A DNA stretch of 64,000 bases, from positions 239,816-303,815 of the forward strand of contig CAVYRJ010000008.1 of NCBI GenBank assembly GCA_963770935.1. The letters are read 5' to 3'. A program made the position numbers and the translations under genes. Of the stretch, positions 3,821-50,145 are shown piece by piece. Under the pieces are notes generated by a model, which was given only the letters and a program-made list of their open reading frames with translations, did no database searches and was not told where the DNA came from. The stretch comes from Candidatus Bathyarchaeota archaeon. Lineage in GTDB: Archaea > Thermoproteota > Bathyarchaeia > Bathyarchaeales > Bathycorpusculaceae. Numbering within the stretch: the stretch's first letter is position 1; each line of letters opens with the position of its first letter.

Positions 3821-6800
3821 TTAAGCAGCAGTCACAACGCCATCTTTACAGACGAGTTTTCGCTCTCGCACCAGCCGCTTGAACACTTCAGAGAACACTG
3901 CGTTGGCTCCATCGCCTGAATGATTTATCCCAAATACTTTTGCGGTTTCTGCAATCAGCGAATCATCGCTTATACCTAAAGCATACTGAGCAACTATTGT
4001 CATAGCTGATTCAACCTCTTCAGGTGCAATGTAATCGGCTTTGCGCTTTGATTCTGGAAAACCCTGAATTGGCACTCGAATAGGCGTTTCGCTAAGTCCA
4101 ATTGGCCACAGAAAACTGCCTTTGATAATCACTTTCTGCATCTTAATCAGGTTGTTTAATGCCTCCCTTACAGCGTGAGCGATTTTTGGAGTTACCCGTT
4201 TTATCCCCCAGGCAGCCGCTAACCGTTCAACTGAATAGTCAAAGTGCACTGGACCTTCGTTTTGAACCAGTTCTGCGAGGAGTTTGGTTTGGTTTTCTCG
4301 GTTTTCTGGAAAATGGAACTCGTTTTTTTGTTTAGAGTCATATTTAGATTTGGCTGTGGCGACCTTGATGTAGGGATTGTAGGTTGCTTTAAGTGGGTAG
4401 ACTTTGTAGGGAACCCCGATTTTCTCGATGCCTGCAAATGTGTTTTTCCGGACATCTGTTTGAGATGCTGAGCCTTCTTTGATGTCTATGATGGGTTTTT
4501 GGGCGTCTTTCTCAAGTTGAATTTTTTGGGCTTGTTCAAGGGTTTCTTTTAGACGCCTGATTTCTGAGTCACGTCTTGCAACCCATGCTGGTGACCATAT
4601 GCGGTGCATGCGCCAGCCCAGTTGCCGCAGGACTTGTTCGCGAAGTCTGTCCCTATCACGGGCGCTGCTGCTTGACTTGTATGTGGCGCCATCGCATTCT
4701 ACACCAAGAAGGAAATTTCCAGTGTTAACGGGGTCAACAACTCCGATGTCAATTCTACAACCGCTACAACCTACTTCTGGAACGACCTCATAGCCCAGTT
4801 TTTTGATTTCCGCTGCTACATCTTGGTCTAAGGATGAATCAAAAGCGCCTTCCTTTGATTTAGTCGGTAAGGTTTCAGGTCCAAGCTCAGCATAATCAAG
4901 ATAGGTGCGCAGTGTTTGTACTCCCAGTGCTTGAGTGTCTTTATCAATATCAGAACCTTTAATGGAAGTTATCATCACGACTTTCTCTCGAGCGCGTGTA
5001 ACGGCAACGTTTAGGCGCCGTTCGCCGCCTGGTTTGTTTAAGGGTCCAAAGTTCATTGTCATTTGTCCCTGCTGGTCAAAGCCGTAGCCAACACTAAAAA
5101 AAATGACGTCGCGTTCGTCTCCTTGCACGTTCTCAAGGTTCTTTACGAAGAAGCCTTCTAAACGGTCTTCTTTAAAGAAGAGTTCGAAGTCAGGTTGTTC
5201 TTTTCTTCGGCGATCGATAGCTTCTTCAATGGCATCCATCTGTGCAATGCTAAAGGTTACGACACCCAATGTTTTCTTGGGATAGTTTTTGAAATGCTCA
5301 AACACAAGGTCGACGACTTTTTCTGCTTCTTTTAGGTTGTTTCTTGCTCCGCCTCGGTCATAAATTCCGTCTGGCACATGGACGAGTTTTACGCCTAAAC
5401 TGTCATTTTCTGCTTTTGCAGCTGGGAACGTTATCATGGTGTCATCGTAGAAGCGGTGATTGGAGAACGCGATGAGCTCTTCGTGTTTGCTGCGGTAGTG
5501 CCACCTCAGCGTTTTTACTGGCAAGCCTATGCCTAAACATTCGTCTAATATACTGTCGAAAACTTCTATGTCGTCATCGCTAAGTTCATCCCAGTCGACA
5601 TCGCCGATTAAGTTTTTCTGGAAGAAGCTGGTAGGCGGCAGCTGCTTGTTATCGCCTGCAACAACAAGCGTTTTGCCCCGGTAGATAGCACCTATGGCGT
5701 CTTCGGGAACAAGCTGCGATGCCTCATCGAAAAGAACTAAGTCAAACTTGCTATCTGGAGGCAAAAACTGGCTAACGGAGATGGGGCTCATCAACAGGCA
5801 AGGCTTTAGTTTGACAAGTAGATTTGGAATCTTTTGCATCAGCGTACGAATCGGCATAAGGCGCCTTTTCTTTGCAGCCTCTTTGAGCAAAATGTTTGCT
5901 TCGGTGTCGGCTGCTTGTATCAGGATATCTTGGGGTTTTCTTGCTATTCGCTGATTCAATAACCATACTGGATGTGAGGTAGATTAATTCTTGGTCGAGT
6001 TTTCGGAAGTCAGCGATTAACTGCTCATGGTTCTCGCGGCGGAATCTGCCCAATTTCTGGTCTTCGTTATATAGATTGTTTATCCATTCCTGGTAAACAC
6101 TCTTCCGGAAAACCTCACCCAAGTCGGCTGCTGAAATATGCTGTTCAACTAAACGGCTAAAGAACTGATCTAGATTTCGTAGATTGAAGCGATTCTTAAC
6201 GTCTCTAAAGTCGATCCAAACCTGCAAATCATCCACCCGGTCGCGGAGTACTTGGATTCGCTCGATTATTACTTTGATTTCTAATTCCTTTAGATTTTGG
6301 TTTCGGTATTTCATCTCAGTTTCGAAACGCTTTTCAAAATCCGCCAGAACCTTAAGCGAACTCTCGTTTTGCTGCTGTTAGTTCTGAGTTGGATGGCGCT
6401 GCAACCGGTCCTTGAGCGGCAATGTCTGCAAAAGCTTGGGGTACAGGGATGTCGCGAAATGCGGCTTGCACTTTTTTGCTCCATTCAAGCACAAAGACAA
6501 TGTCTTGCCAATTGGTTTCTAATTCGTTGAAGCGACTGCCAAATTTGGTTTGCAACTGGACTCTTTCGCCTACAATCCGGGTTTCCTGTTTTCGTATATC
6601 TTCAGCGTTTTTGAGGTCTTGTATGAGTTGTTTGAAGTTTTGGGGTTCTTGCTTGCAGGTTGCTAAGGTGTCTCTTGTTAGTGCGCAGAGGAGGTTTTGC
6701 TGTTTTTCTAGGTCGTTTGCCCATTCCTCAAGCGTTGAAAGCGCAGTTTGTGTAATTGGCTTATCGGATTTTGGAATAGTTGGTGGAATTAATGATTCTA

Positions 6801-9508
6801 ATTCCTTGCTTTGTTGCTCCCATCGATCAACAGATTCTTGCATTTCCAAACCCAAATTCTTAATCATAGGCGATGGGCTTGTTGAACTGGTGAGCAATTT
6901 TAGAAGAGATTCAGGAATTTGGGTTCCCCATGACAACTTTTTAATTTCGTCGATTAGCGCTATGGCTTTTTCTGCGCCTTGGAAGTCCGTTCGGGTCTTG
7001 TGGTAATAGCGACCCATTAAAGTGCGAACAGATTCAACTGAATCCTCAATCTTCGCTTTCAGTTTTTTGACTTTCCGAGCGTCGATAAGGTCTTGTTGTA
7101 TTGTTTTTGGGACTTTACCTTCGTTTGTTATCCGAGCAATAGCTTTTTGGTCGTTGCGGTACGTTGAATTGAAGATTTTCAAACCACTCTGGTATTCTCC
7201 ACTGTACCTTTCAATTATTCCGTCCAAGTCTAACTCGTAGATGCCGTCGCTATAGGTTTCTTCTATCCTGCTCTTTGTCAAGTTGTATTCTAGATAGAGC
7301 TGCTTTGCCTTGGAAACGGTTTCTTGGACTTGCTCAAGGTATTTAGCGTCAAACCATTCTGGCTCTGGCTTATCATCAGCAAAGCACAGCAGTGCTATCC
7401 GGGATAAACTGCTTTAGCTGTGTAACCGTCAAGTCGCCGCCGTCTAAACCTAGTAGCTGAGCGAGTACTTGAGAGGTTTCACGCCACTTTCGGGAAGCCA
7501 ATTGAGTATTTCGGGAAAAAGCCAAGAATTTTTCACGTTTCCCCAGCAATTCGCCTTCTTCTACGTTGATTTGCTGGAAGCAGGTTACCCAATGCTGATA
7601 CTGCCTGCTGCAACTCGGCTGACCTGTTTAAGTCCAGAGCGAACAATGATGGTTGGTAGCGTTCCATGAGGTTGGCGCGAGTGCTTCTTTATCCAGATGC
7701 TGGTTTGAAGGTAGTTTTGTGCTTCGTTTAGGAGTTTGTCAAGGTTTGTGTTTGTTAACCAGTTACTTTCGGGCTTAGGACTCTCAAAGAGGAGTCTGCT
7801 GACGTCAAGGAGCCATTGTATTCGCGCAAACGTTTCAGGTGGAAACACACCCAGTTTGGCGGAAAATTCTTCGGTTTCCAGCTGCAAACTACGTAATTTT
7901 TCATTAATTTTAACAAGCGTTGTGAGGAGTTCGCTTCGGATTTCAAGGTTGTATTTGTCAGCGCGGTAGCCTAACCAAGGAAAATCGGGCTCCTCGATTA
8001 CCTGCCAAACTTTGCTTAGCTGCGAAACCAGTTCCTCAAGCTCACGCATCTTTTGCGGAGTCAACGTTCCCAACTCCGTTAATCCCACGGATACAAACGG
8101 AACGCGCTCGAGGCTTGAGATTATGCTTAGAACGTCATAGACGCTTCTCTGCAGGTACGGACGCTTATCATGCAACGCGGTGACGTAGCCGTTTAAGGCT
8201 TCACGGTATTCTGCCAGCCGCTCAAACTCATGTGCCGAGGGTAATTTGCGCGGAACAAGGTTTTCGTCGAGGCTGCGTTTGAGTTCCGCCACGACTTGCT
8301 GCTTGTTGGCTTTGCTACTGTGAAGTTCAAGGCAGAAATGCGCCAAACCCACCTGGCTAAGCCGTTTATAAACAACTTCCAATGCCGCCATCTTGTCACT
8401 GACAAAGAGCACGCTTTTGCCGTTAGCGATGCATTCGGCAATGATGTTTGCAATCGTCTGGCTTTTGCCTGTGCCGGGGGGACCTTTCATGACAAAGCTT
8501 TGTCCACGCAGGGCGTATTCGATGGAGACCCGTTGGCTGCTGTCAGCGTCGAGGACCTGGTAGGTTTTGGCTGGTGCCTCAATCTTGTCAACGTCTTTCT
8601 CGTCGGGCAAACCGTTCAAAATCAAGTTGTCTTCTTTGATGCCTGCTATTGCTTTGATTATAGGATGTTGGGTAACCAGAGCAGCGTTAGATTCTAAATC
8701 TTTGTAGATAACAAGTTTCTGGAAGGAAAAAAGCCCCAAATCAACCGATGGCTCAGTCTTCCAGCCCATTTCCGCCACTGCAGCCTCAACCAGCTTAAAG
8801 TAGTCAGCTAACTTTGATTCTTCCCACTCCTCAGGCAACGACGGCAACTCGATTTTGTAGTCATTCTTCAGTTTAGCCTGCAACGCAGGGTTTAAGACAG
8901 CTTCATCTTCAACAGGAGGCACAGCGATGCTGTAGGGTTGTCTAATGGAATCGCGTCTCAACTCCAAAGGCACAAGAATTAGGGGCGACTGGACATTTTC
9001 TTTTGTTTCCAAATCCACCCAGTTAAGCGTCCCAAAAGCCGCATGCAAAATGCGGACACCCCGTTCCATGTAATCCAGCAAGGGAACGACTTTGCAGATT
9101 TTTTAGAACACGTTCAAGGTCCATGTGATTTAAACTGCCGCTAACCAACTGATTTGCTGTAGGGCGTTTTATTTCATCAGGGGTGGTGGCTGGTATGAGG
9201 GCAGATTTTGCCGTTTTGGGTTCGGTTTTGGTTTTGCCCTTGCCTTTGGCTATTGTTTTTTCGAGTTTTTCTGGGTTTTTGGTTTCTTCTTGAGGTTGCC
9301 AGAATTCTAACTGATTCTTTTTTATGACGAGTGCGTCGAAGATTTTTTGTTGGTCAGGTTGGGTGATTTGGAGGCTTCCACGTTTGCCTTTGTGGAAGTA
9401 GAGCAGGTTGTTTTTTCTTGAGAGGTCAATTAACCTAGATTTCCAGTCTTCAACACGCTTCATGGGTGAGGAGGAAATAGTTTCAGTCATGTAAAGGCAT
9501 ATCCCCAA
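3821..9508 (-). CDS. Large DUF4011-SF1 helicase-Vsr/MTES_1575 nuclease-DUF3320 protein (Hhe-like), split into ORFs by several indels
   Basis: WKSRLIDLSRKNNLL (DUF4011), GPPGTGKSQT, FDEASQ, GDNKQLPP, HYRS, ENVQGDERD, RRLNVAVTRAR, IDIGV..GVECDG..ARDRDRLR..LGW; consecutive ORFs in shifting frames. Confidence 0.85.
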
Positions 9509-39928: not shown

Positions 39929-41011
39929 CTACAGTGAGTAACTTGTTTTTCTTTTCCTTAGCAGATAGATAAAGAATGGGGTTCCAGCCAAAGCAGTTAT
40001 GACGCCGACGGGCAACTCAGAAGCCCCAGTTGCTACACGCGCAACAGAATCGCAGAGTATAAGGAATATTGCTCCGACAATTGCAGAGGTAGGCAAAAGA
40101 ATCCTGTGGTCAGGTCCAATGACAAGTCGTGTCATGTGAGGAATAATGAGACCTACAAATCCGATAACCCCACTGATAGAAACTACAGCTCCAGTTATTA
40201 AAGAGCCTATGAGTAGAAGAATTTGCCGTACTCTTTCCGTGTTAACTCCCAAATGTTGCGCGGTGTCATCACCCATCGAAAGCATGTTGAGGTCTTTTGT
40301 GAAGAAATATGCAAGGATCGTTCCAGTTAATACGAACGGAAAAACAACGTAAATGTGGGTCCATGTAATGTTTGAGAATCCGCCAGCTATCCAGGCAACA
40401 ATACCAATGAGCGCCTTGCCTGAGCGTAATTCGAAAACTGTTTGCAACGCCAAAATAAATATGTTCACAACTATTCCAGACAGCAGAAGCGTAGTTATCG
40501 GAACCTTGTTTCCTACACGTGACATGAAATAGACAAGAAAAACCGTTAAAACAGCACCCAAAAAAGCAACTATTTGAAAAATCCCAAGCCCAAAGAAATT
40601 GAGGACTAGCGAGCCAGCAAATAATGCAGCTAAGGTGTAACCGAAAGATGCTCCCGCTGAAGCCCCTAAAAGGTAGGAGTCAGCCATTGGGTTTCTGAAG
40701 ACGCCTTGATACATAACTCCAGCTGCAGCTAAGCCGGCGCCAACTAGAGCACCTGCAAGTATTCGGGGTAGACGGATTTGAAGAATTATTGCTTCGTTAA
40801 CAGTGGTGATAGATGAGGAGTTGACATACTGGTTTAGAAAGGGAATTTGCTTGCCTAATATGGTGAGGATATCTGAGAAGTTGATCGGAGCGAAGCCTAT
40901 ATTTAGGCAAAGAACCACAACGGCTGCAAGCAACGCTATCAAAAGTAAGACAATTAGCTTCCATCTTTTCGAACGTTTGGAATATTTCTCTTTAACTTTA
41001 TCTTGCATCAT
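39929..41011 (-). CDS. btuC: Cobalamin ABC permease (FecCD family)
   Basis: IRLPRI, FRNPMAD, GFVGLIIPH, LPVGVIT. Confidence 0.88.
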   Translation of the reverse strand: MMQDKVKEKYSKRSKRWKLIVLLLIALLAAVVVLCLNIGFAPINFSDILTILGKQIPFLNQYVNSSSITTVNEAIILQIRLPRILAGALVGAGLAAAGVMYQGVFRNPMADSYLLGASAGASFGYTLAALFAGSLVLNFFGLGIFQIVAFLGAVLTVFLVYFMSRVGNKVPITTLLLSGIVVNIFILALQTVFELRSGKALIGIVAWIAGGFSNITWTHIYVVFPFVLTGTILAYFFTKDLNMLSMGDDTAQHLGVNTERVRQILLLIGSLITGAVVSISGVIGFVGLIIPHMTRLVIGPDHRILLPTSAIVGAIFLILCDSVARVATGASELPVGVITALAGTPFFIYLLRKRKTSYSL

Positions 41012-41031
41012 ATATTAACACAGAAAAAGGG

Positions 41032-42009
41032 TTAGGGAGAATTAAAAAGTTCTGGGTAGAACGCTTTGGCAGCAGCTGCAATTTGGTCACCGATTCGTGG
41101 TCCAGCTTCGGCGAAGAGGTCCCCGCTAACGATAATTACGCGATCGTTTTGTATTGCGCTTATTGAACTCCAGCCTGGTCTCGCTTTAACGTCGTCTATG
41201 GTTCCATAGAATGGGGCTTCCCCTGTGTTTGCCATTTGAGAGGGCAGAAGTATAACATCAGGGTTCTTTTGGACAATTGTCTCGGAACTGATTACAGGAT
41301 ACTGTTGGCTTTCGTCCCCAAAGATGTTAATTCCTCCAGCCTTCACAATCACATCATTTATGAACGAAGTACCACCAGCAGACATCAGTGGAGGAGTCCA
41401 GACTTCATAGTAAACTTTTGGTTTAGGCAAGTTAGCGTCTGCTATTTTAGCTTCTATGGCGCTAATTTGACTGTTTAGAGAATTCACTAACGTTGCCGCA
41501 TTTTGGTCTGCGCCTGTTGCTTTACCAACCATTGTAATGTCTTTGAGTATGCCGTTGACGTCATTAGGGTTGAGAACCAGAACGTTATAGCCTAGGTTTC
41601 TTAGCGTGACAACATCTGGATCGTTAACGGGTGTGGCAAGAATCAGATCTGGGTTCAGTGATGCGATAGTTTCTTTGTTAGGTGTTGAGAAGCCTCCGAT
41701 GCTTGTCATGTTGCCTGCTTCAATCCAGGCGGAGAAGTTGTAAGGGTAATGGTCGTAGTCCGTTACGCCAACAACTTTGTCGCCAACACCTACTGCAAAG
41801 AGGATTTGGGTGTTGCTAGGAGCAAGTGAAATAATTCGTTGGGGAACCGAGGTTAAGTTGGTTGTGTAGCCTTCGTCATCGATAACCGATATGTTTTTTT
41901 GAGTATTTGTTTGGTTAGCTGCGTTGTAGTTGTTGAAGATGAAAGCGGCGGAAACGACTGAGATAATGATTATTGCTGTTGCAATATAGAGTGCGTATTT
42001 TTTGTTCAT
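41032..42009 (-). CDS. btuF: Cobalamin-binding protein
   Basis: PQRIISLAPSNTQIL, VVGVTDYD, GPR; N-terminal anchor; cbiZ context. Confidence 0.82.
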   Translation of the reverse strand: MNKKYALYIATAIIIISVVSAAFIFNNYNAANQTNTQKNISVIDDEGYTTNLTSVPQRIISLAPSNTQILFAVGVGDKVVGVTDYDHYPYNFSAWIEAGNMTSIGGFSTPNKETIASLNPDLILATPVNDPDVVTLRNLGYNVLVLNPNDVNGILKDITMVGKATGADQNAATLVNSLNSQISAIEAKIADANLPKPKVYYEVWTPPLMSAGGTSFINDVIVKAGGINIFGDESQQYPVISSETIVQKNPDVILLPSQMANTGEAPFYGTIDDVKARPGWSSISAIQNDRVIIVSGDLFAEAGPRIGDQIAAAAKAFYPELFNSP

Positions 42010-42283
42010 TTCCTTTATACCCCTTATTAGCTGGATGGATTATCCACCCAATATATAAACCTTAACTAGCCACTCACAAAAAAACACAGCATCATTCAGC
42101 AGACCAATCCATCAATTCTCCAATGTTTAACGTATCAAAATAAAGGGCATTATAACTGACAGTTATCACAATGAATTTTTGATGTTGTTGCTGTATCGGT
42201 ACAGCCACTCACGTTTAAGAAGGATATCGCTAACCATTAAAATAGTTTAGTTGATCAGATTTTGATCGATAGGAGGTGGATTT

Positions 42284-42487
42284 ATGGAAGCAACAGAGAA
42301 GAGTGGTAAAGTAAAATTTACTTTTGAAATGGAGTTAAACCAGCCTATAATGGAGCTAGTTAGGCAAGACATTGATATGATGATGGATTTAGCTTCTCAG
42401 GGTGCGGACATTTGGAGGAAAAATATGGGTGAGAGAAGAAAGCAAGGACACGGTATGGGCATGATGATGCACAAAGGGCAAGAATAA
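42284..42487 (+). CDS. Small Met-rich hypothetical protein
   Basis: Strong GGAGGTGG RBS, 67 aa. Confidence 0.6.
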   Translation: MEATEKSGKVKFTFEMELNQPIMELVRQDIDMMMDLASQGADIWRKNMGERRKQGHGMGMMMHKGQE

Positions 42488-42493
42488 ACTTGC

Positions 42494-43270
42494 CTAAATA
42501 TTTTCTAAATTAAAAGCACGTTCATCAGCCACCGAACCAATAATCTGCTCCGCAAACGCCTCTTGTTCTTCTTCACCTGTGACAGCAATCCAGCATGCGC
42601 CTTCTGCACCACAAACGCCGCCAGCAGCAATTAACTCCACATCAGCGGCTGTTAAAGCCTTCAAGGCGTCCAATTCAGTGAACACTTCTCCGACAATAGG
42701 CAGCAAACGGTATCCACCTGCACCTGGCGCATTTAGTTTCTCTGCTAGGGTGTATAAATCGCACGCTTACGCGTTTTTCCAAACCCACGGGTATTATGAG
42801 TCTTACTCGACGTCCCACAATGGCGGGCAAAGCTAAACCTATTGTTCCACCTTTGGGGTGACCAATCAAAATAGCCGCTTGCCTACGAGTTAAATCCAGT
42901 GCGTTTGCTCCTTTCAAGATAACATCGCCTTCCTTGAGGTCGTCAATTACATCGGCGATTGTTTTTCCTTTCTGAAAAACACCTTTAGTTATGACAACGT
43001 CGCCTGGGAACTTGCTCTCGTCGGAGAGTCTTCCTTCAGCGTTACTGCTTTGTTGGGAGGCATGGTTATGCCGCGGAAGAAGTGCTTTCTTGAGAAATCG
43101 TTTGCTATATTGTGGGTTCTCAGGATTTCTTCAGCTACGTAACCATTCGTTGTTCCAGCAATAATTACAAGAGTCCCTTTTTTCAATACTTTAATTATGG
43201 CTGGATGATTTGCTATTGTTCGTGCGATTAATCGTTTACCTGTCGAGGGTGTTATAAGAAACTGTTTCAT
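42494..43270 (-). CDS. Conserved hypothetical protein (split by indels)
   Basis: [44 protein letters not shown] over three ORFs. Confidence 0.7.
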
Positions 43271-43402
43271 TTGAGCACCTTCTCCAGCTTCATTAATCGT
43301 TAAGGGCAATAAAAGTTTTAACCATAAATTTATTTAATTTTAAAAAAACACATGTCTCCCAAAGGTTGAATAGCGCAGATTTAAAAGCAAGCAAACCTTA
43401 CA

Positions 43403-43696
43403 ATGGAAGGTTTAATGGTGAGTATTTTGTCCCAAAAAGTTCAAGGAAGAATTACTAATTACCGCACTGGAATTAGAGAACAAACATCAAACGAGTGTTT
43501 AATAGAATTTGAAAATGTAACTTCAGCGGGCCTAGCAAGCAAGCTAGTAGGGCAAAAAGTTGCTTGGAAAAATGGAAAAACTAAGCTTATTGGTAAAATC
43601 AGGGGTCCACACGGCAAGAATGGCATGGTTAGAGTCAGGTTTACGCGTGGAGTTCCAGGTCAAGCAATTGGTTCAATTGTTGAACTGATAAGCTAA
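43403..43696 (+). CDS. rpl35ae: 50S ribosomal protein L35Ae (eL33)
   Basis: NYRTG, GKIRGPHGKNG.VRVRF..GVPGQAIG. Confidence 0.92.
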   Translation: MEGLMVSILSQKVQGRITNYRTGIREQTSNECLIEFENVTSAGLASKLVGQKVAWKNGKTKLIGKIRGPHGKNGMVRVRFTRGVPGQAIGSIVELIS

Positions 43697-43739
43697 ATAA
43701 TTTTTTTTAAAAAATAATGAAAATTTTGTAAAAACTGTT

Positions 43740-43910
43740 TTATAATTCGCCTACGTCCGGGCCTTCATAGACGTATTCGATTATTTCGGTTTTTCCATCT
43801 TTAACTATTACTTGGTAGTCGGCTTCGCAAATTGGGCAAGCAACTATTTCGCCATCTTTTAGTCCATCGCGTTTGAAGGTGTTTCCGCATTCAGTGCATT
43901 TTAGAATAAT
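43740..43910 (-). CDS. LysW-like zinc-ribbon protein (not in ORF track; apparent ATT start)
   Basis: IILKCTECGNTFKRDGLKDGEIVACPICEADYQVIVKDGKTEIIEYVYEGPDVGEL; GGAGG RBS overlapping the aIF-1A stop. Confidence 0.72.
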   Translation of the reverse strand: MILKCTECGNTFKRDGLKDGEIVACPICEADYQVIVKDGKTEIIEYVYEGPDVGEL

Positions 43911-43924
43911 GACTTAATAGCCTC

Positions 43925-44233
43925 CTACTCCATTTTGAGGTAGTTGTGGCTTCGGAGCCAATCGGATTGGTTTTTGCGGTAACGCCAGAAAATGTCTCCT
44001 CGTGTGTCAGATTGGAAATCCCATGGTGACACCAAAACAATGTCTCCTTCTCTTATCCAAACTCGCCTTTTTAGTTTGCCGCGAACTCTACACATTCGTT
44101 CCTTGCCATCTTGGCATTTAACTGTAATTCTTTCTGCGCCAAGCATCTTGACAGCTACGCCTAATACGTCGTTTGAGGAAGGTAAAACCATGCTGTCGAG
44201 ACTGCCCTCGTTTGTAATTTTTCTTTTACCCAT
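43925..44233 (-). CDS. eif1a: Translation initiation factor aIF-1A
   Basis: MLGAER, CRVRGKLKRRVWIREGD.V.VSPWDFQ..RGDI.WRY; GGTGA RBS before ATG at 44233. Confidence 0.95.
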   Translation of the reverse strand: MGKRKITNEGSLDSMVLPSSNDVLGVAVKMLGAERITVKCQDGKERMCRVRGKLKRRVWIREGDIVLVSPWDFQSDTRGDIFWRYRKNQSDWLRSHNYLKME

Positions 44234-44602
44234 TTTATCACCCATTTTGGCTTGCGCCAATTATAATCAGAATAGTTTTGAGAAAAAGCGTATTGTCGGT
44301 CTAACTCTTCCTCTTAAGAATTCTAACCATTATTATTAAGGAAAACAGCAGGTATATTAGCATAGCTTACGTTTGGAGTTTTTTTTCCATAAGTTTTGGG
44401 TATTTTTTAAATATATTTTATATTATTGACTTGATTTTAAAAAATCGGCTTGAAATTTAAATCATTTTTCAAAATAGGCTTTTTTTATCTATTCCTTTAT
44501 AAGTACGAAACTACATTGATGGGTGAAGAGTTTCTTTTATCCTCTTGGATAATCTGATTGAGTAACGGATCCTTTTCAAAAAAACAAATGAGGTAAACAC
44601 CT

Positions 44603-44737
44603 TTGTGTATGTTAAGAGCAGGTTTAGTTAAAAATTGCCGCAGATGCAAGTCATCCGTCAGGCTAAATTGCGTCCTAAGAAAGAAATCCGGAAAGAAAGA
44701 TTACACTGACAATAAGAAACGAACTGGCTCAGACTAA
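44603..44737 (+). CDS. Small basic Cys-rich protein (44 aa, not in ORF track)
   Basis: TTTATAAG TATA at 44496, GAGGT RBS, TTG; MCMLRAGLVKNCRRCKSSVRLNCVLRKKSGKKDYTDNKKRTGSD; hairpin and T tract after stop. Confidence 0.55.
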   Translation: MCMLRAGLVKNCRRCKSSVRLNCVLRKKSGKKDYTDNKKRTGSD

Positions 44738-44757
44738 AAATCCGCGGCGCAAAAAAT

Positions 44758-44795
44758 AACGAGTTTTGACTCGTTCCTAAATTTTATTTTATTCA
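44758..44795 (+). terminator. Hairpin plus oligo-T terminator
   Basis: AACGAGT-TTTG-ACTCGTT followed by TTTTATTTTT. Confidence 0.5.
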
Positions 44796-44917
44796 TTAAT
44801 TTTTGCAATTATATTATTTTCATAATCGCTATCTTGTGTCGTGGAATCAATTGCTTAGAAATAATTAAAAATAAAAAAGAAAATAGTTAAAGATTGTAAA
44901 GATGCTTAGCTATACGC

Positions 44918-45058
44918 TTAGTATCTTCGTGGTGGTCTACGTTTTGAGTAGCACTCTCGGCAGTAAACTGGCCTTGTACCGTCTGGCTTGAAAGGAACTT
45001 CACATTCTTTTCCGCAGTCAGCGCAAGTTGCCTTGTGCATCTCTTTGTTATTATACAT
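44918..45058 (-). CDS. CxxC-x17-CxxC zinc-ribbon protein (46 aa, not in ORF track)
   Basis: MYNNKEMHKATCADCGKECEVPFKPDGTRPVYCRECYSKRRPPRRY; GGAG RBS. Confidence 0.9.
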   Translation of the reverse strand: MYNNKEMHKATCADCGKECEVPFKPDGTRPVYCRECYSKRRPPRRY

Positions 45059-45085
45059 TCGCTATTTCAACTCCTACTACTTTGG

Positions 45086-45142
45086 CTGTGCAAAAGGTCT
45101 CTTTTACACAGTATCATCTAACTAATCATCGATGCTTATAAA
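45086..45142 (-). promoter_or_regulatory. TATA box and 5'-UTR hairpin of the 44918-45058 gene
   Basis: TTTATAAG (45142-45135), then CTGTGTAAAAG-AGAC-CTTTTGCACAG 11-bp stem with one G-U pair. Confidence 0.6.
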
Positions 45143-45410
45143 TTGAATGCTTTGCCGAATTTGATTAACCATCGAATTCACAAGGGAGCAGCTTATTCTT
45201 TAACAAGAGTACTGTGCTTTGATGGTGCCGACACAATATGAAAACGGGCTAAAGCCAAAATTTGGGTAAACATTATTTTTTATCGTCAACCTAATATAGT
45301 TAACATTGCATTATTAGGTAAATATTCGGGGTAATAGAGAAAAAGTATGAAACGGCATCTCTACAGTTTCTTTTTCTCGGAACTTTGACTAATAATTTGA
45401 GAGGGGTAAT

Positions 45411-46067
45411 TTGAGACAGAAAAAATCAACATTAGGCGAGCATCTTGCGCTTCTTTCGGTAAAATACAACATTTACCCTAACGAAGTTTTTCAAGCATTA
45501 ATCACCGCAAGAAACAATGAGAAAGCGGTCTGCGGCAACCTAACAGTAGAATACCGCGGCAAAGTAAAAGGTGAAACAATTTTCCTTATAACAAAAGATA
45601 GCGCCGTTGTTGCTCAATTCCGTGTTGGTGAAGAGTTCCTTCTAAGAAAAGATAATCCCTTCGAAAGTTGGATGAGCACTGATAAGATTCGCAAGAAAAT
45701 CGCAAAACAAAACACCGAATCAATCTACACATCCATTCACGACTTAAGGGCAGGCATGAAACGGGTCAACTTGAAAGCGGAAGTTATTGAAATTCCTAAA
45801 CCAGCTCAGGTTCACACACAATTCGGTAACACAGTCATGGTAGTCAATGCATTGGTTGGGGATGACACTGGAAAAACTAAACTCTGCCTCTGGGAAGGAC
45901 AAATCGGCGCAATCGCTGTTGGAAACAACATCGAGTTAAAAAATGCACAGGTGTGCGTTTTTCGGGGCGAGAGGCAACTGCGGCTTGGGAAGAACGGTGT
46001 TCTTAACGTTTTGTCAAGCTCTCCCGATGTTGTAAAACAACAGTTGGCTGCCGCAACAGTTAGATAA
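45411..46067 (+). CDS. SSB/RPA-like OB-fold protein with N-terminal extension
   Basis: IHDLRAGMKRVNLKAEV..VGDDTGKTKLCLW..FRGERQLRLG resembles the crenarchaeal SSB OB fold. Confidence 0.8.
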   Translation: MRQKKSTLGEHLALLSVKYNIYPNEVFQALITARNNEKAVCGNLTVEYRGKVKGETIFLITKDSAVVAQFRVGEEFLLRKDNPFESWMSTDKIRKKIAKQNTESIYTSIHDLRAGMKRVNLKAEVIEIPKPAQVHTQFGNTVMVVNALVGDDTGKTKLCLWEGQIGAIAVGNNIELKNAQVCVFRGERQLRLGKNGVLNVLSSSPDVVKQQLAAATVR

Positions 46068-46108
46068 AGAGTTCTTTTTTAAAAAAAACCTAAATTTTAT
46101 TTTTAAAA

Positions 46109-46318
46109 CTATTTCCAGTCGGTTCTTCGTCTGGACCATGCCTGGCTTCCGTTAGAATCAGAACTTGACCCTTTATGTTCGGTTCCTCTTGGGGTACTAT
46201 GTTTAGCTAGACATTCTCTACAATAAACGGGTTTACCTGCTGTTGGTTTAAAGGGAACAGTGGCGGCTTTGCCGCAGTCACTGCATTTAATTTCGGTTAC
46301 ATTTGATCTTTGGGACAT
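46109..46318 (-). CDS. CxxC-x17-CxxC zinc-ribbon protein
   Basis: CSDCGKAATVPFKPTAGKPVYCREC. Confidence 0.88.
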   Translation of the reverse strand: MSQRSNVTEIKCSDCGKAATVPFKPTAGKPVYCRECLAKHSTPRGTEHKGSSSDSNGSQAWSRRRTDWK

Positions 46319-46644
46319 TAAATTACTCCATACTATGTGAAAATTCGGGAAAAGTTTCCTTATTTTTCGAGTATTTAAAAGTGGAAGGTTGACTTAAACG
46401 TTTCCATAATTCTGCATGCTCCTGTATTACGGATAGGAAATTTTGCTTTTGCCTTCCATAAGCGACCGTGTAAATTCTACTGATTGTTGTTTGGAAGAGA
46501 AAATCTAAAACAGCGAGTTGAGTTAAAGCCTGGAATAACCGCCTAAAACAGGTTTTTTCCAAGTTTTTATCGCCGTTTTAGGAAGACAGTTTTTATAGAT
46601 GTATGAAGTATTTGGTTGGACAAGAGAAGAGGGAAAACAGTTAA

Positions 46645-47301
46645 TTGACGCTTATAGTTGATGACGCTGGCAGCGGAGATTTGCTTCACGGAGTTGTAGT
46701 CGGCGCATACCATGAAGAAACAGGCGAATTCAAATATGACCTAATCGACGTCAGATTCTACCAAGACATCTTCCGCGAAAAAGAATATTTGCAAGAATCC
46801 TCACGTGTCGTCTCCAAACTTGTCTCCCGCTTCAACCTAAAGCCCGACGAAGCCATCCACATTTGCCAAGGCTGCATTTTCGACGTTGCCGCAGAAGAAC
46901 TCCAGAAAGTTTACGGCGAAGATCGCGTGAAACGGATAAGAGTTATCGGAGAAGCTCAAAGGCTTGTAGAAATCGCTTATTTGGACGAAATACGCAACTT
47001 GGGCTACGAACCCCTCGCTGAACGGGAAGAAAAAAGAGGCAAAAGCTTCTTCCACATGATGCGATGGCTAAAAGACAACCCAGAAATGCTACGTTACGCC
47101 AAGACAGGGTGGCCACGCCTAAAAAACTACCAGATGTTCAAACAGTACCACTCGCTACAAGCCTTCAACGCTATATGTAGCGAATGCGGAACCGAATGCG
47201 AAGTCCCATTTAAACCCAAAGCAGACAAACCGGTGTATTGCCGAAAATGCTGGTCAAATCATAAACCTGTTCACGGAAAAGGAAAAGCAATAAAACATTA
47301 A
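46645..47301 (+). CDS. RNase HII-like fold protein fused to a CxxC-x17-CxxC zinc ribbon
   Basis: N-terminal IVDDAGSG..GVVVG (cf. GIDEAGRG..GP.VV); C-terminal CSECGTECEVPFKPKADKPVYCRKC. Confidence 0.7.
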   Translation: MTLIVDDAGSGDLLHGVVVGAYHEETGEFKYDLIDVRFYQDIFREKEYLQESSRVVSKLVSRFNLKPDEAIHICQGCIFDVAAEELQKVYGEDRVKRIRVIGEAQRLVEIAYLDEIRNLGYEPLAEREEKRGKSFFHMMRWLKDNPEMLRYAKTGWPRLKNYQMFKQYHSLQAFNAICSECGTECEVPFKPKADKPVYCRKCWSNHKPVHGKGKAIKH

Positions 47302-47317
47302 ACTTGATTGGTGAAAA

Positions 47318-47638
47318 TTGACAATGAATGTAATATTTGATTTTAACTCAAACTGGTATATACTCTTATTCGCCTTCTTAGGAGCATGGGCAGTTCTGCT
47401 GGTTGTTCGCCGCAAATGGATAGCAACACACGAAGTCAAACAACAAATTTTCCTAGCGTTTGGCGGGATGATTTCGCTGGCACTTATGGAGTTCTTCGCA
47501 GTATCCACCGGACTTTGGAATTATACTCCAGGCAACTGGCCTGTGATTTTATGGCCCACTTACTTCGCGGCCATACTTTTCGGCTATCAACTACTTAGAT
47601 CAATCGAAAGCCTAATCCCACACAGACCAGTCATCTAA
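47318..47638 (+). CDS. Small membrane protein
   Basis: Three hydrophobic helices; EFFAVSTGLWNY. Confidence 0.65.
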   Translation: MTMNVIFDFNSNWYILLFAFLGAWAVLLVVRRKWIATHEVKQQIFLAFGGMISLALMEFFAVSTGLWNYTPGNWPVILWPTYFAAILFGYQLLRSIESLIPHRPVI

Positions 47639-47903
47639 ATTTATTTTAACCCAGTTAAAACAAATGAATTAAAGTTGGCATTGAAAATTGAAGACGACTC
47701 GAATCAGCTTTACTACTCAAGACCTGAATAAAAAGTGCTAATTGTCACAGACCTAACTGACTGAGTTTAAATGTTTGCTCGGATGGGATTATTCAGCAAT
47801 TTTCAAGAATCAGCATAGATGAGCTTATCGAAAGAACCGGGAAAGACTATAAGATGGCTGAGCAAAACCACTAATAATCTTAGCGCTTAAATACGGATTA
47901 CCA

Positions 47904-48420
47904 ATGAATACAGTGAGCCTGTTTTGGTTGAGCTCTAACAGCAAGCAAATTGTCTGGTATGGAAAACCCTAGATTGTTCCAGCAGCCCCCATCCGAACCA
48001 CCATAATAATCGCGGTTGCAGTAATTATTTTATGGCTTGAACTTTTCTCTGGGGTAGCGTCAAAAGGTTTATTCTGGTTGGCCGGTTTGGGGTTGGACAT
48101 TACTTGCATTTGCTAAGATTTGGCTAATTGGAATACTTGACCTTCTTATTTTCCGATTAGCCTATACCTACATCCTACGCAAGACGACTTAGAAGTCAAA
48201 TGTGGTATCCTACTACAATCCTTTATTGTCGCACCTGCAGGATTCTGCGACTTGCTATTCTACCAATCCATCGGCAGCAGAATATTCGACTACTGCAACT
48301 TGTTGGTTAACTCGCAAGGGGAGCGCAAAACCCAGATCAACTTGTCCACTCACCCAAGAAAGTGGCGGATACTATGCGGGACATCATGGGCAAACCAGTC
48401 GTCCGCACTAGTCAATGTTT
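47904..48420 (+). pseudogene. Degraded membrane protein with bacterial PH (bPH_2)-like domain
   Basis: WYGKP*IVP, TM segment, LEVKCGIL..QSIGSRIFDY.NL.VNSQGE; internal TAG and several frameshifts. Confidence 0.5.
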
Positions 48421-48762
48421 AGAAAGTACCGTTTCGATTTTACGCTTGAGCTCAAAAAAGGAAACGTTAGCGCATGTATATACATGCATATTACATAGCC
48501 TTATAAGCAGATTTCGCCGATGCACAAAGCCCCAATGGAGGCGAAAAAAAAGTGTTGAGTAGAGACTGCGACGGCTGCACCCTTCTGCACATGTGTAGTG
48601 AAAGGTACAGGCGTGTTGGCAAAGATGAAAAAGTTTACTGTCCAGACGGAACAGCTCACCTAGTAGACCAAAACTAAGTCCTATTTTTTCTAAATTTTTT
48701 GTTGTTTTTTGGGGCAAAATAGAAATGCAAGCAACCCACAATTACGCCTTATTGGTGATTGA

Positions 48763-49293
48763 ATGGACAAAGCCGAGTTTTTGTTGTGGAGCCGCAAATA
48801 CGACAAGGCGTTTGGTTGGCAGGCGCAGCGGGAGCGGGAACTCGGCAGCAAATTCCGTAAAAACAAGGCATTAACCTGCAAGGATTTGGCTTCAATTGTC
48901 GAGTGGAAGTTTAAGGATGACGCCGAGAAGAAGACGCGAAGTCTAGAGCTTGTTGCCCACAATGATGAGGCAAACGTTAACAGGTTATCCAGCCAAGCAC
49001 TAAGTATCCCCGGCTGCGAAGACAGCTACCGAATGAGTTGCCTCACTCTTCTGGAAGGCATAAGCCCGGTCCTTGCCAGCATCATCCTCACATTCTTTGA
49101 TCCTAAACAATATTGTATCCTTGACCAACACACTTGGAAAGCTCTTCTTGGCAACATCCCGCCCAACATGCAAACCACACTAAATTACCTTAAACTCCTC
49201 GCCGTCATCAGAAAATCCGCAGCCAAACAAAACCTCGATGTAAGAGTAATCGACAAAGCTCTTTTCAAGAAAGGAATAGATGAATCCAACTAA
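48763..49293 (+). CDS. Hypothetical protein, helix-hairpin-helix glycosylase-like
   Basis: VEWKF, LEGISPVLASIIL..DP..Y.ILD, DKALF. Confidence 0.6.
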   Translation: MDKAEFLLWSRKYDKAFGWQAQRERELGSKFRKNKALTCKDLASIVEWKFKDDAEKKTRSLELVAHNDEANVNRLSSQALSIPGCEDSYRMSCLTLLEGISPVLASIILTFFDPKQYCILDQHTWKALLGNIPPNMQTTLNYLKLLAVIRKSAAKQNLDVRVIDKALFKKGIDESN

Positions 49294-49916
49294 TTGGTCA
49301 AGTTTTTGGTGACCTTTTTTAATCTTGCAATTTGTGAGGAGTTCATTTCTATTTTTCTGCTTTCGAGGATATTTAGGAATGCTTGCTTGTTTTCTGAATC
49401 TATAGCAGGCAGGATGCTTTCAGCGTGAATGGGCACATCGCGTGGAAGGCACTTCTTGAGTTGTGAGATGAGGAAGGGAAAGATTTTTTGCCCATAGTTT
49501 TTGTCTGCGGCTGCAACTTTGGCAAGGGCTTTTGTGCCCCAAACAAGGGTGATTAAGGTGCCCTTATTCATGGCAACGGTGACATCTCCTATTTTGGCGT
49601 AGATTTCGTTTGGTTTTTTGTCTGCGATGGTTGCGAGGGCTATCATGGCGCCCCAGACCATTCGGTTATTCTTGCTTTTTAGCAGGGTTAGAAAGTCCTG
49701 TATGTAGTCGGTTATGAGGTCTGGTTTTAGGTAGCCGATTTCGTAGAGGACTTTTAGGCAGTCGCTTTGGATGTTTTGGTTTTTGTTCTGCAGATTTTCG
49801 GCAATTTCCTTTATGCCTGCGATGTTTTCTGTTTGGGCAAGCTCTTTGGCAAGCTGTTGGTTTGGTACTTCATCGCGTCGGTTCTGGAAAAAAGCAATCT
49901 TATCTAACACAGACAT
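49290..49916 (-). CDS. Conserved helical-repeat (HEAT/ARM-like) protein
   Basis: RRDEVPNQQLA, SDCLKVLYEIG, NNRMVWGAM. Confidence 0.65.
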   Translation of the reverse strand: MSVLDKIAFFQNRRDEVPNQQLAKELAQTENIAGIKEIAENLQNKNQNIQSDCLKVLYEIGYLKPDLITDYIQDFLTLLKSKNNRMVWGAMIALATIADKKPNEIYAKIGDVTVAMNKGTLITLVWGTKALAKVAAADKNYGQKIFPFLISQLKKCLPRDVPIHAESILPAIDSENKQAFLNILESRKIEMNSSQIARLKKVTKNLTN

Positions 49917-50145
49917 ACCTAATTTAACCTGATTAGAGCATTACTGTTAGGCGGATATAAGTTATTATCAACGGCAAATTGAAGGTAAAGAGGGCAGTAA
50001 CGTTTCTCAAAAGGGTTCACTTGTCTTCAATGAGGATTGGTTGGGGGTCTGTATCAGTCTGTTCTATTTGATGTTTTAGATTTTGGTTGGAAAGCCTTTA
50101 AAAGCATGACACGTGTCATATAATATGTTTGAGGAACAAACAACC

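Follow-up and report, generated by a model that had tools for sequence, protein, structure and literature searches.

Several described systems bear on the locus analysed here. RNase HII uses four acidic catalytic residues (D-E-D-D), C-terminal extensions of DbpA- and Hera-type DEAD-box helicases usually bind RNA, LIM half-domains are protein-binding modules, SSBs acting on ssDNA have acidic tails and LysW carries its substrate on a C-terminal Glu. Within the zinc-ribbon family defined by TIGR04272/PF23477, two Methanosarcina mazei members (A00184 and A01980) were found to bind zinc by ICP-MS, and the portion of that report drawn on here gives them no known function and suggests a role in transcription (PMC12704099).

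The window is a stretch of 64,000 nucleotides from a 1.98-Mb bathyarchaeal genome (G000), in which three ribbons of this family lie among other small genes. Building on observed domain identities, folds, fusions and conservation of gene order, we favour, with a probability of roughly 45%, the reading that three gene sets with a common treble-clef finger and basic tail have come to lie side by side in this lineage, rather than forming one regulon, the ribbon itself being a portable nucleic-acid binder. The first set, an evolutionarily stable core, would consist of a free ribbon of ~46 aa (at times accompanied by another, longer ribbon) next to a long SSB-like gene. The second would be a small new family of type-2 RNase H-fold proteins that gained the ribbon at its C-terminus in this family of Bathyarchaeia, and the third a genus-limited block round one of two aIF-1A paralogs, with an AUU-start acidic zinc-ribbon protein and a basic 44-aa micro-protein.

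The zinc ribbons and their setting

44918..45058, minus strand: rib1, a CxxC-x17-CxxC zinc finger of the treble-clef type, encoded as a free 46-aa protein with a basic tail (TIGR04272, 72.4 bits)
45086..45111, minus strand: hairpin in the 5' leader of rib1, conserved at 20 loci
46109..46318, minus strand: rib2, a ribbon of 69 aa that carries a linker and, at its C-terminus, a conserved basic Trp motif (TIGR04272, 61.7 bits)
47158..47301, plus strand: third ribbon with a basic tail, fused to an RNase H-like domain (TIGR04272, 61.7 bits, residues 172-207)

Pfam and NCBIfam HMMs were run on 10 proteins of the cluster, Pfam matches being listed at E up to 0.1. The three ribbons, two free and one fused, that had been noticed in the sequence-only reading are bona fide members of TIGR04272 (cut-off 36) and of PF23477 (72.1, 59.8 and 58.1 against a cut-off of 27). 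Only four such fingers occur in the entire genome and three of them sit inside 2.4 kb, an arrangement that arises by chance with P ~1.9e-5 (simulation). The CxxC pairs are exactly 17 residues apart in all three translations, and the same spacing was seen in 20/20 related ribbon ORFs, which were themselves picked up by that pattern. Conservation of rib1 is high, with 91-100% identity over 11 genus loci (100% in five of them) and 82-93% over 15 other genera. Across the 20 loci, most changes in the arms of its leader hairpin are tolerated by G-U pairing in the mRNA, and two pairs are altered on both sides.

Spacers are AT-rich as had been noticed earlier (GC 0.24-0.37 versus 0.41-0.49 inside genes), and a putative separate promoter for each gene finds support in a TATA-like box and a conserved leader upstream of each in five to six aligned relatives. 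The three smallest genes of the cluster encode fewer than 60 aa or have no common start codon. Contigs from RNA libraries, i.e. four metatranscriptomes that carry no levels or conditions and cannot rank expression, span aIF-1A, rib1, the SSB-like gene and the fusion gene.

The ribbon as a portable tail

In other Bathyarchaeia the ribbon and its basic tail end DEAD-box RNA helicases, with the architecture DEAD, Helicase_C and zf_Tbcl_2 in 3/3 long frames examined, and one of these tails (from genome G162) shares 77% identity with rib1. The DEAD-box helicase of G000 (C9:26698-27834) ends without a ribbon, the near-identical ribbon being there a free protein. This presence at the end of DEAD-box helicases favours a portable nucleic-acid-binding tail. 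The proposal of a shared RNA-binding or docking module thus stands as far as sharing and portability go, since the ribbon recurs in helicase tails, in the RNase H-like fusion and next to SSB-type genes. With its basic tail, it would act as a portable module that binds nucleic acid, whether single-stranded or structured; RNA is the more likely ligand, a preference over DNA that comes from the helicase fusions alone. In cis, it would deliver a helicase of the DEAD-box type or the RNase H-like enzyme to its substrate, while in trans it and the OB protein would together make up a binder of two parts, like the OB folds and zinc finger of RPA.

The RNase H-like fusion protein

46645..47154, plus strand: type-2 RNase H-like domain, residues 1-170 of the 218-aa fusion protein (structure model)
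47318..47638, plus strand: hydrophobic protein of 106 aa, 3' of the fusion gene

The fusion gene (46645-47301, plus strand, 218 aa) carries the domain first called RNase H-like by eye, a label that its predicted model (pLDDT 96.9, pTM 0.91) vindicates and sharpens to a type-2 RNase H fold. Against 48,161 PDB chains, the top seven matches of the model are all RNase HII, HIII or H2A (Z 9.8-10.8, 135-160 aligned residues), T. kodakarensis RNase HII giving Z 10.8 over 155 residues with an rmsd of 3.9, and the next tier consists of integrases at Z 7.7. The domain has no match in Pfam (E up to 0.1, PF01351 included) or NCBIfam, and a PF01351 search of the genome returned the canonical RNase HII gene only. 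Profile comparison of the family with type-2 RNase H by hhalign covered the first 20 residues only, at 47% probability; the best PDB sequence match of the family profile was a weak one to M. jannaschii RNase HII (E 0.088).

Near-invariant residues of the domain are D6, D7, G11, C74, G76, Q105, E109, G120, W141, K153 and G155. D6-D7 align with the D-E pair of RNase HII and, in the weak alignment (E 0.088), C74 apparently stands in place of the third acidic residue, the Asp after strand 4. Given this altered catalytic set, the domain may not be a nuclease. These proteins represent a new, small type-2 RNase H-fold family (192 clusters among 1.8 billion representatives), whose domain has the ribbon attached in 14 further genomes of this bathyarchaeal family and stands alone in eight genomes of the family, as well as in six genomes of other families. 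Since canonical RNase HII was found in 12/13 genomes searched, they do not replace it. The 106-aa hydrophobic protein downstream, for which no Pfam or NCBIfam match was found, is a neighbour in 8/12 genus loci and in two loci of other genera.

The long SSB-like protein and its pairing with a ribbon

45411..46067, plus strand: long SSB-like protein with an N-terminal alpha/beta domain (residues ~1-100) and an SSB/RPA-type OB fold (~105-205), TTG start

This protein matches PF21473 (34.9 against a cut-off of 24) and, among PDB sequences, is closest to Sulfolobus SSB (E 8e-12); it falls below every NCBIfam SSB/RPA equivalog cut-off, the best being NF005050 with 76.2 bits against 176. In its predicted model (pLDDT 79.5), the OB domain (residues 105-212) matches human SSB1 with Z 14.4, archaeal RPA with Z 13-14 and Sso SSB with Z 12.2. 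The long form is found in 58/80 other genomes of the family, with one to five paralogs per genome.

A ribbon lies within 2 kb or less of a long SSB-like gene, judged from coordinates, in at least 20 of the 57 non-genus family genomes having the SSB-like gene; among the matches listed, no such adjacency is seen in 37/57, i.e. most of them. In the 20 loci that were fetched, the ribbon ORF was confirmed in 20 and the SSB-like ORF in 17. Outside the family, the two genes adjoin in four of 10 genomes with the long form (G138, G146, G167 and G169), and in G152 and G146 a ribbon also adjoins a short SSB. Genes of the rib2 type adjoin SSB-like genes in G084, G094, G086 and G104. Chance adjacency would be ~1-2% per genome by a rough hand estimate (~3 ribbons x 2 SSB-like genes x 4 kb / 1.6 Mb). 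Identity of the SSB-like protein is 42-55%, far below that of its slowly evolving neighbour rib1 (82-93%), which means that the main constraint on rib1 is probably something other than the SSB-like protein.

An OB domain closest to SSB, RPA and hSSB1 could also place the module on the DNA side: OB protein and ribbon would form a split RPA-like ssDNA binder, and the fusion protein would process RNA:DNA hybrids (R-loops, primers or embedded ribonucleotides) in replication or repair. This would be consistent with the predicted RNase HII/HIII fold of the fused domain, RNase HII-type enzymes acting on RNA:DNA hybrids, with an SSB-like paralog (C4:52338-52961) that lies beside ORFs resembling Ku and LigD polymerase by eye, and with the zinc fingers that euryarchaeal RPAs carry. 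However, the same ribbon terminates RNA helicases, canonical RNase HII is already present in nearly all genomes searched, the short SSBs adjoining ribbons have basic, Arg/Gly-rich tails rather than acidic ones and the SSB-like gene also stands beside aIF-1A in 3/12 loci outside the genus, which together make a DNA-side role rather doubtful.

The aIF-1A block

43403..43696, plus strand: ribosomal protein L35Ae (PF01247, 53 bits against a cut-off of 27), edge neighbour of the aIF-1A block
43740..43910, minus strand: 56-aa acidic zinc-ribbon protein, LysW-like in fold only, directly 3' of aIF-1A, ATT start after GGAGG
43925..44260, minus strand: aIF-1A of a 'type A' paralog lineage (NF003084, 128.5 bits against 91)
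44603..44737, plus strand: 44-aa basic Cys micro-protein (pI 10.3), divergent from aIF-1A

HMM scores or coding pattern agree with the original identification of aIF-1A, the SSB-like OB protein, the basic Cys micro-protein and the neighbouring L35Ae. For aIF-1A, which also passes TIGR00523 (113.1, cut-off 102.9), the start is likely the ATG at 44231-44233, upstream of which relatives have stop codons. The type-A form is the sole aIF-1A found in G000, and 21/25 genus genomes also have a copy ~60% identical. Among 15 genus loci, it adjoins L35Ae in nine and the micro-protein in 13, and rib2-type genes are near it in 13. The micro-protein evolves as a coding sequence, with 13-18 third-position changes versus 0-8 at positions 1 and 2, and 12-17 synonymous versus 2-8 non-synonymous codon changes; its start is ATG in G003, it is preceded by a GAGGT motif and its family amounts to 24 protein clusters, none with a Pfam match.

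The LysW-like protein of the sequence-only reading is real and coding, its resemblance being to zinc ribbons only and not extending to LysW itself, because it scores under every LysW cut-off (PF21344, 25.7 against 27; NF041070, 26.6 against 75; TIGR01206, 18 against 53.2). It has no ATG, GTG or TTG start, its frame being delimited by stop codons alone; the start codon is ATT in 5/7 relatives and ATG in 2/7. In five close relatives there are 14-21 changes at third positions versus 0-4 each at first and second positions, the G003 copy showing 12 first-position changes, and the junction with aIF-1A is bridged by RNA-library contigs. A LysW/ArgW carrier was considered and rejected on these scores and on the C-terminus, D-x-G-E-L in 12/12 sequences, where the invariant G-E-L takes the place of a terminal Glu.

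Gene order across relatives

The complete seven-gene set was found in 6/13 genus genomes in which the locus was read (G000 and 5/12 others), and gene order is reshuffled inside the genus. Beyond the genus, 12 aIF-1A loci contain neither ribbons nor the LysW-like gene nor the micro-protein, and L35Ae is likewise unlinked to ribbons in all 12. Around the fusion gene, neither rib1 nor the SSB-like gene was found nearby in 12 loci of other genera, and no neighbouring family recurs in more than 5/24 non-genus loci. Most parts of the supposed single module are thus scattered in relatives, and the ribbon and SSB-like pair alone holds together.

This distribution is difficult to reconcile with the cold-shock-like RNA chaperone and turnover regulon originally envisaged, co-induced under stress and including aIF-1A and L35Ae. 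The fusion of the ribbon to helicases, the basic nature of the small proteins (pI 9.1-9.7 for rib1, rib2 and the SSB-like protein), the conserved, hairpin-containing leaders of rib1 and the SSB-like gene, and the coverage of four of the genes by RNA-library contigs would fit such a regulon. However, the six core genes alternate strands and none of the 10 proteins has a cold-shock domain match in Pfam (E up to 0.1), leaving this reading very improbable.

The same reshuffling, together with a promoter-like box for each gene and the unconserved surroundings of the fusion gene, would be expected if small, highly expressed, independently transcribed genes had drifted together with no joint function. 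The ribbon would then be a LIM-like protein-docking finger or a ribosome-associated micro-protein, in line with its weak match to LIM half-domains (CRP1, E 1.7e-5), the weak match of rib2 to S27e (E 5e-4) and the conservation of rib1 at the level of ribosomal proteins. Nevertheless, the pairing of ribbon and SSB-like gene recurs across genera (at least 20 genomes) and in four further families, well beyond the chance estimate, and the ribbon was fused independently to two nucleic-acid enzymes, so we consider the absence of any joint function unlikely.

A more ambitious proposal goes the opposite way: ribbon and long SSB-like protein would form an undescribed two-subunit, RPA-like ssRNA binder of Bathyarchaeia, its zinc subunit serving also to target, as a tail, both a DEAD-box helicase and a non-canonical, Cys-containing RNase H-fold nuclease; within the genus, the system would be linked to an alternative aIF-1A with a downstream partner gene that is AUU-gated like bacterial infC. 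We hold this to be quite improbable; if true, it would amount to an archaeal system for RNA unwinding and cleavage.

Comparison with known systems

The juxtaposition of three gene sets that we favour can be set against five known systems. Like the LysW/ArgW amino-group carrier proteins, the 56-aa protein has a small zinc-ribbon globular domain and an acidic tail, but its gene directly follows aIF-1A, and the region read holds no lysine or arginine cluster. The RNase H-like domain shares with type-2 RNase H (RNase HII/HIII/H2A; PF01351) the whole-domain fold and an N-terminal I-D-[DE]-A-G-x-G strand-loop motif. It differs in being shorter (170 aa) and missed by PF01351, in having D-D instead of D-E and apparently, from the weak alignment, Cys74 at the third acidic position, in carrying a fused zinc ribbon in part of the family and in coexisting with canonical RNase HII.

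The SSB-like protein has the OB fold and sequence family (PF21473) of crenarchaeal SSB, archaeal RPA and human SSB1 (SOSS-B1), whereas it possesses an extra conserved N-terminal domain of ~100 residues and its zinc ribbon is encoded next door instead of being a finger inside the chain. As in DEAD-box helicases with C-terminal RNA-binding extensions, ribbon and basic tail extend otherwise ordinary helicases, yet in G000 the helicase is without a ribbon and the ribbon is free. Finally, the free ribbons resemble M. mazei A00184 and A01980 in being small proteins well above the cut-off of the same domain model, but here they fall into two conserved subtypes, of 46 aa with a basic tail and of 60-83 aa with a C-terminal Trp/Arg motif, and the ribbon is linked to genes for SSB-type OB proteins and, in the fusion protein, joined to an RNase H-like domain. 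Compared with the transcription role suggested for the M. mazei proteins in the portion of that report drawn on here (PMC12704099), this context would point rather to the handling of single-stranded nucleic acid.

Three zinc ribbons in a compact gene neighbourhood

Nine genes lie within positions 43403-47638 of the window (contig C8, 239816-303815), three of which encode a CxxC-x17-CxxC zinc finger (hereafter 'ribbon') of the family defined by TIGR04272 and PF23477 (zf_Tbcl_2).

Genes at 43403-47638, in order along the DNA
43403-43696 (+): L35Ae
43740-43910 (-): acidic zinc-ribbon protein (LysW-like), 56 aa
43925-44260 (-): aIF-1A
44603-44737 (+): basic Cys micro-protein, 44 aa
44918-45058 (-): rib1, CxxC-x17-CxxC finger with a basic tail, 46 aa
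45411-46067 (+): SSB-like protein, 218 aa
46109-46318 (-): rib2, ribbon, 69 aa
46645-47301 (+): fusion protein, 218 aa, with a 170-residue unannotated domain followed by the third ribbon
last of the nine (+): hydrophobic protein, 106 aa

With 62-72 bits, all three ribbons clear the TIGR04272 cut-off of 36; the genome as a whole contains only four such domains, and the chance that three of the four would fall inside 2.4 kb is P ~2e-5. The two smallest genes, encoding the LysW-like protein and the micro-protein, are real, because their changes with respect to close relatives fall overwhelmingly at third codon positions. Together with the AT-rich spacers (GC 0.24-0.37), the domain scores and these small coding genes bear out the gene and ribbon content described in the sequence-only reading. 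An additional 79-aa ORF between rib2 and the fusion gene (46323-46562, -) is conserved only in its last ~25 codons, which overlap the promoter and leader of rib2, and is probably not a gene. In one relative (G010, contig C15), an insert of ~2.5 kb separates rib2 (5614-5820) from the fusion gene (8434-9084), which are spaced by ~0.3 kb in the window. No Rfam family matched the stretch 41000-50000 (E up to 1), PHROGs returned chance-level rows only and PADLOC returned none.

A cluster conserved in pieces

It had been proposed that seven of these genes form a cold-shock-like regulon for RNA chaperoning and turnover. This is not what comparison of fusion-, aIF-1A- and SSB-centred loci revealed, since the cluster is conserved in pieces only. 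The full set is found in this genome and five of 12 other genomes of the genus, the strands alternate and no cold-shock domain was found; the seven-gene set is a recent juxtaposition, and the idea of a stress or cold-shock regulon finds no support. Full-length relatives of the fusion protein are encoded by 23 of the 25 genomes of the genus, and rib1 and the SSB-like gene adjoin the fusion gene in 11 of 12 genus loci, while L35Ae, the LysW-like gene, aIF-1A, the micro-protein and rib2 are nearby in only five of the 12. In other genera, neither rib1 nor the SSB-like gene was near the fusion gene in any of 12 loci, within the DNA fetched, and outside the genus no neighbour family is conserved (maximum five of 24 loci).

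A second piece is centred on aIF-1A, which has two paralogous lineages in the genus, separated in a tree with modest support. Type A, to which the window copy belongs (81-100% identity), is found in 14 of 25 genus genomes and type B (56-63% identity) in 21, type B not being found in the present genome, G011, G012 or G004. Of the 15 type-A loci surveyed in the genus, 14 have the LysW-like gene 3' of aIF-1A and 13 have the micro-protein next to it; a rib2-type ribbon occurs in 13 and L35Ae in nine. In other families, 12 aIF-1A loci lacked the LysW-like gene, the micro-protein and any ribbon, and an SSB-like gene was nearby in three of them. The LysW-like gene lacks a common start codon: its start (43908-43910, -) reads ATT in five of seven relatives and ATG in the other two (G010, G023), and the ATT codon sits 10 nt past GGAGG. 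The ~100 nt upstream of aIF-1A (44261-44360, -) are nearly invariant in six relatives, a conserved leader much longer than a Shine-Dalgarno site requires. Elsewhere, at G003:C1:1733235-1736318, a paralogue of the SSB-like gene adjoins two short aIF-1A-like fragments, apparently the remnants of a third aIF-1A copy.

Promoters, leaders and transcripts

Alignment of the divergent spacers revealed conserved TATA-like boxes and leaders. The 5' leader of rib1 contains a hairpin of 9-11 bp (45086-45111, -), kept in 20 loci from many genera, with changes that are mostly G-U-compatible on the mRNA strand; with the TATA-like box ~30 nt before it, the mRNA probably begins with this hairpin. The SSB-like leader (45337-45378, +) contains an inverted repeat of 9 bp free of mismatches, GAGAAAAAG ... 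CTTTTTCTC, whose loop varies; the repeat is conserved in all six close relatives, and just upstream of it is a palindrome, CCTAATA...TATTAGG. These conserved boxes, leaders and hairpin tie the genes to no common signal. A scan for bacterial promoters and terminators found no more sites than in shuffled sequence, the bacterial model not being meaningful for an archaeon. Contigs from four RNA libraries (three studies) cover aIF-1A plus its junction with the LysW-like gene, rib1, the fusion gene and the SSB-like gene, in the last case beginning 64 nt upstream of the start. Such contigs speak to presence in the libraries, levels, conditions, strands and starts being outside their reach, and the lack of cover over rib2, L35Ae and most spacers proves nothing.

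The ribbon and its OB-fold partner

The association that recurs beyond the genus is that of ribbons with the SSB-like gene. In the model of the SSB-like protein (pLDDT 79.5), residues 8-73 form two helices and a four-stranded sheet, a linker helix comes next, and residues 119-201 adopt an OB fold. This OB domain is structurally similar to human SSB1 (Z 14.4), to archaeal RPA domains (13-14) and to Sulfolobus SSB (12.2). The long form of the protein, comprising both domains (~210-230 aa) is present in 58 of 80 other genomes of the family, in one to five copies each, and ribbons in 71 of the 80. Of the 57 family genomes outside the genus that have a long SSB-like gene, at least 20 place a free ribbon no more than 2 kb from one, as judged from coordinates; in 20 loci of this kind, the ribbon ORF was recovered in all and the SSB-like ORF in 17. 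In two genomes (G084 and G094), rib1-type, rib2-type and SSB-like genes stand in a row on one strand, and in G086 and at one G104 locus a rib2-type gene adjoins the SSB-like gene. Outside the family, four of the 10 genomes that encode the long form show the adjacency (G138, G146, G167 and G169), and in G152 and G146 a ribbon gene adjoins a short SSB with a basic tail. Across genera, rib1 is 82-93% identical where its SSB-like neighbour is only 42-55% identical, indicating a constraint on rib1 more conserved than its partner.

The genome's fourth ribbon (C8:132550-132684, -) is a 93%-identical copy of rib1 with no SSB-like gene nearby. On contig C4 (50229-54929), a 50%-identical SSB-like paralogue sits between ORFs that, judged by eye, resemble TBP and, divergently, a LigD-type polymerase and Ku.

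Ribbon fusions and a portable nucleic-acid finger

Zinc micro-proteins of the CxxC-x17-CxxC type abound in archaea, and we know of no function assigned to them. In 61 Bathyarchaeia genomes, ribbons are mostly free proteins of 46-100 aa, and six lie within frames of 322-498 aa. Three of these six, all three examined, are DEAD-box helicases (DEAD + Helicase_C + zf_Tbcl_2) whose C-terminus is a ribbon followed by a basic tail, that of G162 being 77% identical to rib1; the orthologous helicase of the present genome (C9:26698-27834) terminates before any ribbon. Longer relatives of rib1 were tandem-ribbon proteins only, offering no informative fusion. A literature search combining archaeal DEAD-box helicase, C-terminal zinc finger and cold retrieved no relevant publication among the matches listed (titles and abstracts). 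Rib1 weakly resembles LIM half-domains and may therefore have a role in protein docking. Members of the family are reported to bind zinc (PMC12704099).

The helicase and RNase H-like fusions and the conserved ribbon/SSB-like pairing lend support to the view that the ribbon is a nucleic-acid module used in common by several proteins, although not as part of a seven-gene regulon. We tentatively favour, with a probability of about 0.45, the reading that the ribbon is a basic, portable zinc finger dedicated to single-stranded nucleic acid, with RNA as the probable ligand. In cis, it would serve the DEAD-box helicase and the RNase H-fold enzyme to which it is fused, while in trans it would partner the OB protein. 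The main rival, a DNA-side, RPA-like role for which the Z of 13-14 with archaeal RPA domains might be invoked, has to be weighed against the fusion to an RNA helicase and appears rather unlikely.

A small family with a predicted type-2 RNase H fold

No Pfam or NCBIfam model recognizes the first 170 residues of the fusion protein. Their family is very small: a search of 1.84 billion representatives yielded 192 clusters at E up to 0.001, and an Atlas look-up via a homologue, in which few members had a record, placed it in Bathyarchaeota and Promethearchaeota. As a lead only, the first named non-self family of a homologue stored in the ESM Atlas (P0122) was RNase_HII (0.76). An AlphaFold2 model built on a 58-sequence alignment (pLDDT 96.9, pTM 0.91) has the element order b1-b2-b3-aA-b4-aB-b5-aC. 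The seven best matches among 48,161 PDB chains are all type-2 RNases H (archaeal and bacterial RNase HII, RNase HIII and human H2A; Z 9.8-10.8 over 135-160 residues), well ahead of integrases (Z 7.7) and Argonaute PIWI domains (~7), VIA-align being the sole basis of the fold assignment. The RNase H-like fold put forward from sequence is thus supported by the predicted structure. Sequence methods detect only the N-terminal I-D-D-A-G-x-G motif (hhalign 47%). A forced global hhalign against RNase HII gave an uninformative 7% probability, and a PDB sequence search with a profile of close relatives (A1) gave nothing useful; the best PDB sequence match of the family profile was M. jannaschii RNase HII (E 0.088).

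The domain is found in 25 of 81 family genomes, the ribbon-fused form occurring in 14 besides the present one and the domain alone in eight, and without a ribbon in six of 16 genomes from other families of the order. Canonical RNase HII was found in 12 of 13 genomes searched, which argues that the RNase H-like family is an additional rather than a housekeeping enzyme. The canonical gene of the present genome (C8:223455-224058, outside the window) is split by a frameshift or assembly error into two frames that overlap and cover model positions 1-66 and 62-198, and that of G004 has a similar two-frame appearance. A paralogue of the domain on contig C17 (70310-70867, -), 25-30% identical and without a ribbon, has I-D-A-S-G replacing I-D-D-A-G, and similar paralogues occur in many genus genomes.

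Comparison with known systems

These results allow ribbon function to be approached from several sides. An OB protein of SSB/RPA type that carries an additional domain recurs as gene partner, the ribbon is naturally fused both to a DEAD-box RNA helicase and to a protein of RNase H fold, and for the latter a high-confidence model describes a small type-2 RNase H-like family, as yet unannotated, whose active site is putatively altered. We found no published description of either the ribbon/SSB-like pairing or the RNase H-like family. If the pairing is real, single-strand-binding proteins of archaea other than the known RPAs would gain a zinc-finger subunit.

Bacterial infC has an AUU start, and in the LysW-like gene a non-canonical start lies directly behind an initiation-factor gene, that of aIF-1A; by analogy, its ATT could be a sensor of start-codon stringency. 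With RNase HII, the domain of the fusion protein shares the predicted fold but apparently differs at the active site: in a weak alignment (E 0.088), the nearly invariant Cys74 falls where RNase HII has the Asp that follows strand 4, the other nearly invariant residues of the family being D6, D7, Q105, E109, K153 and G155.
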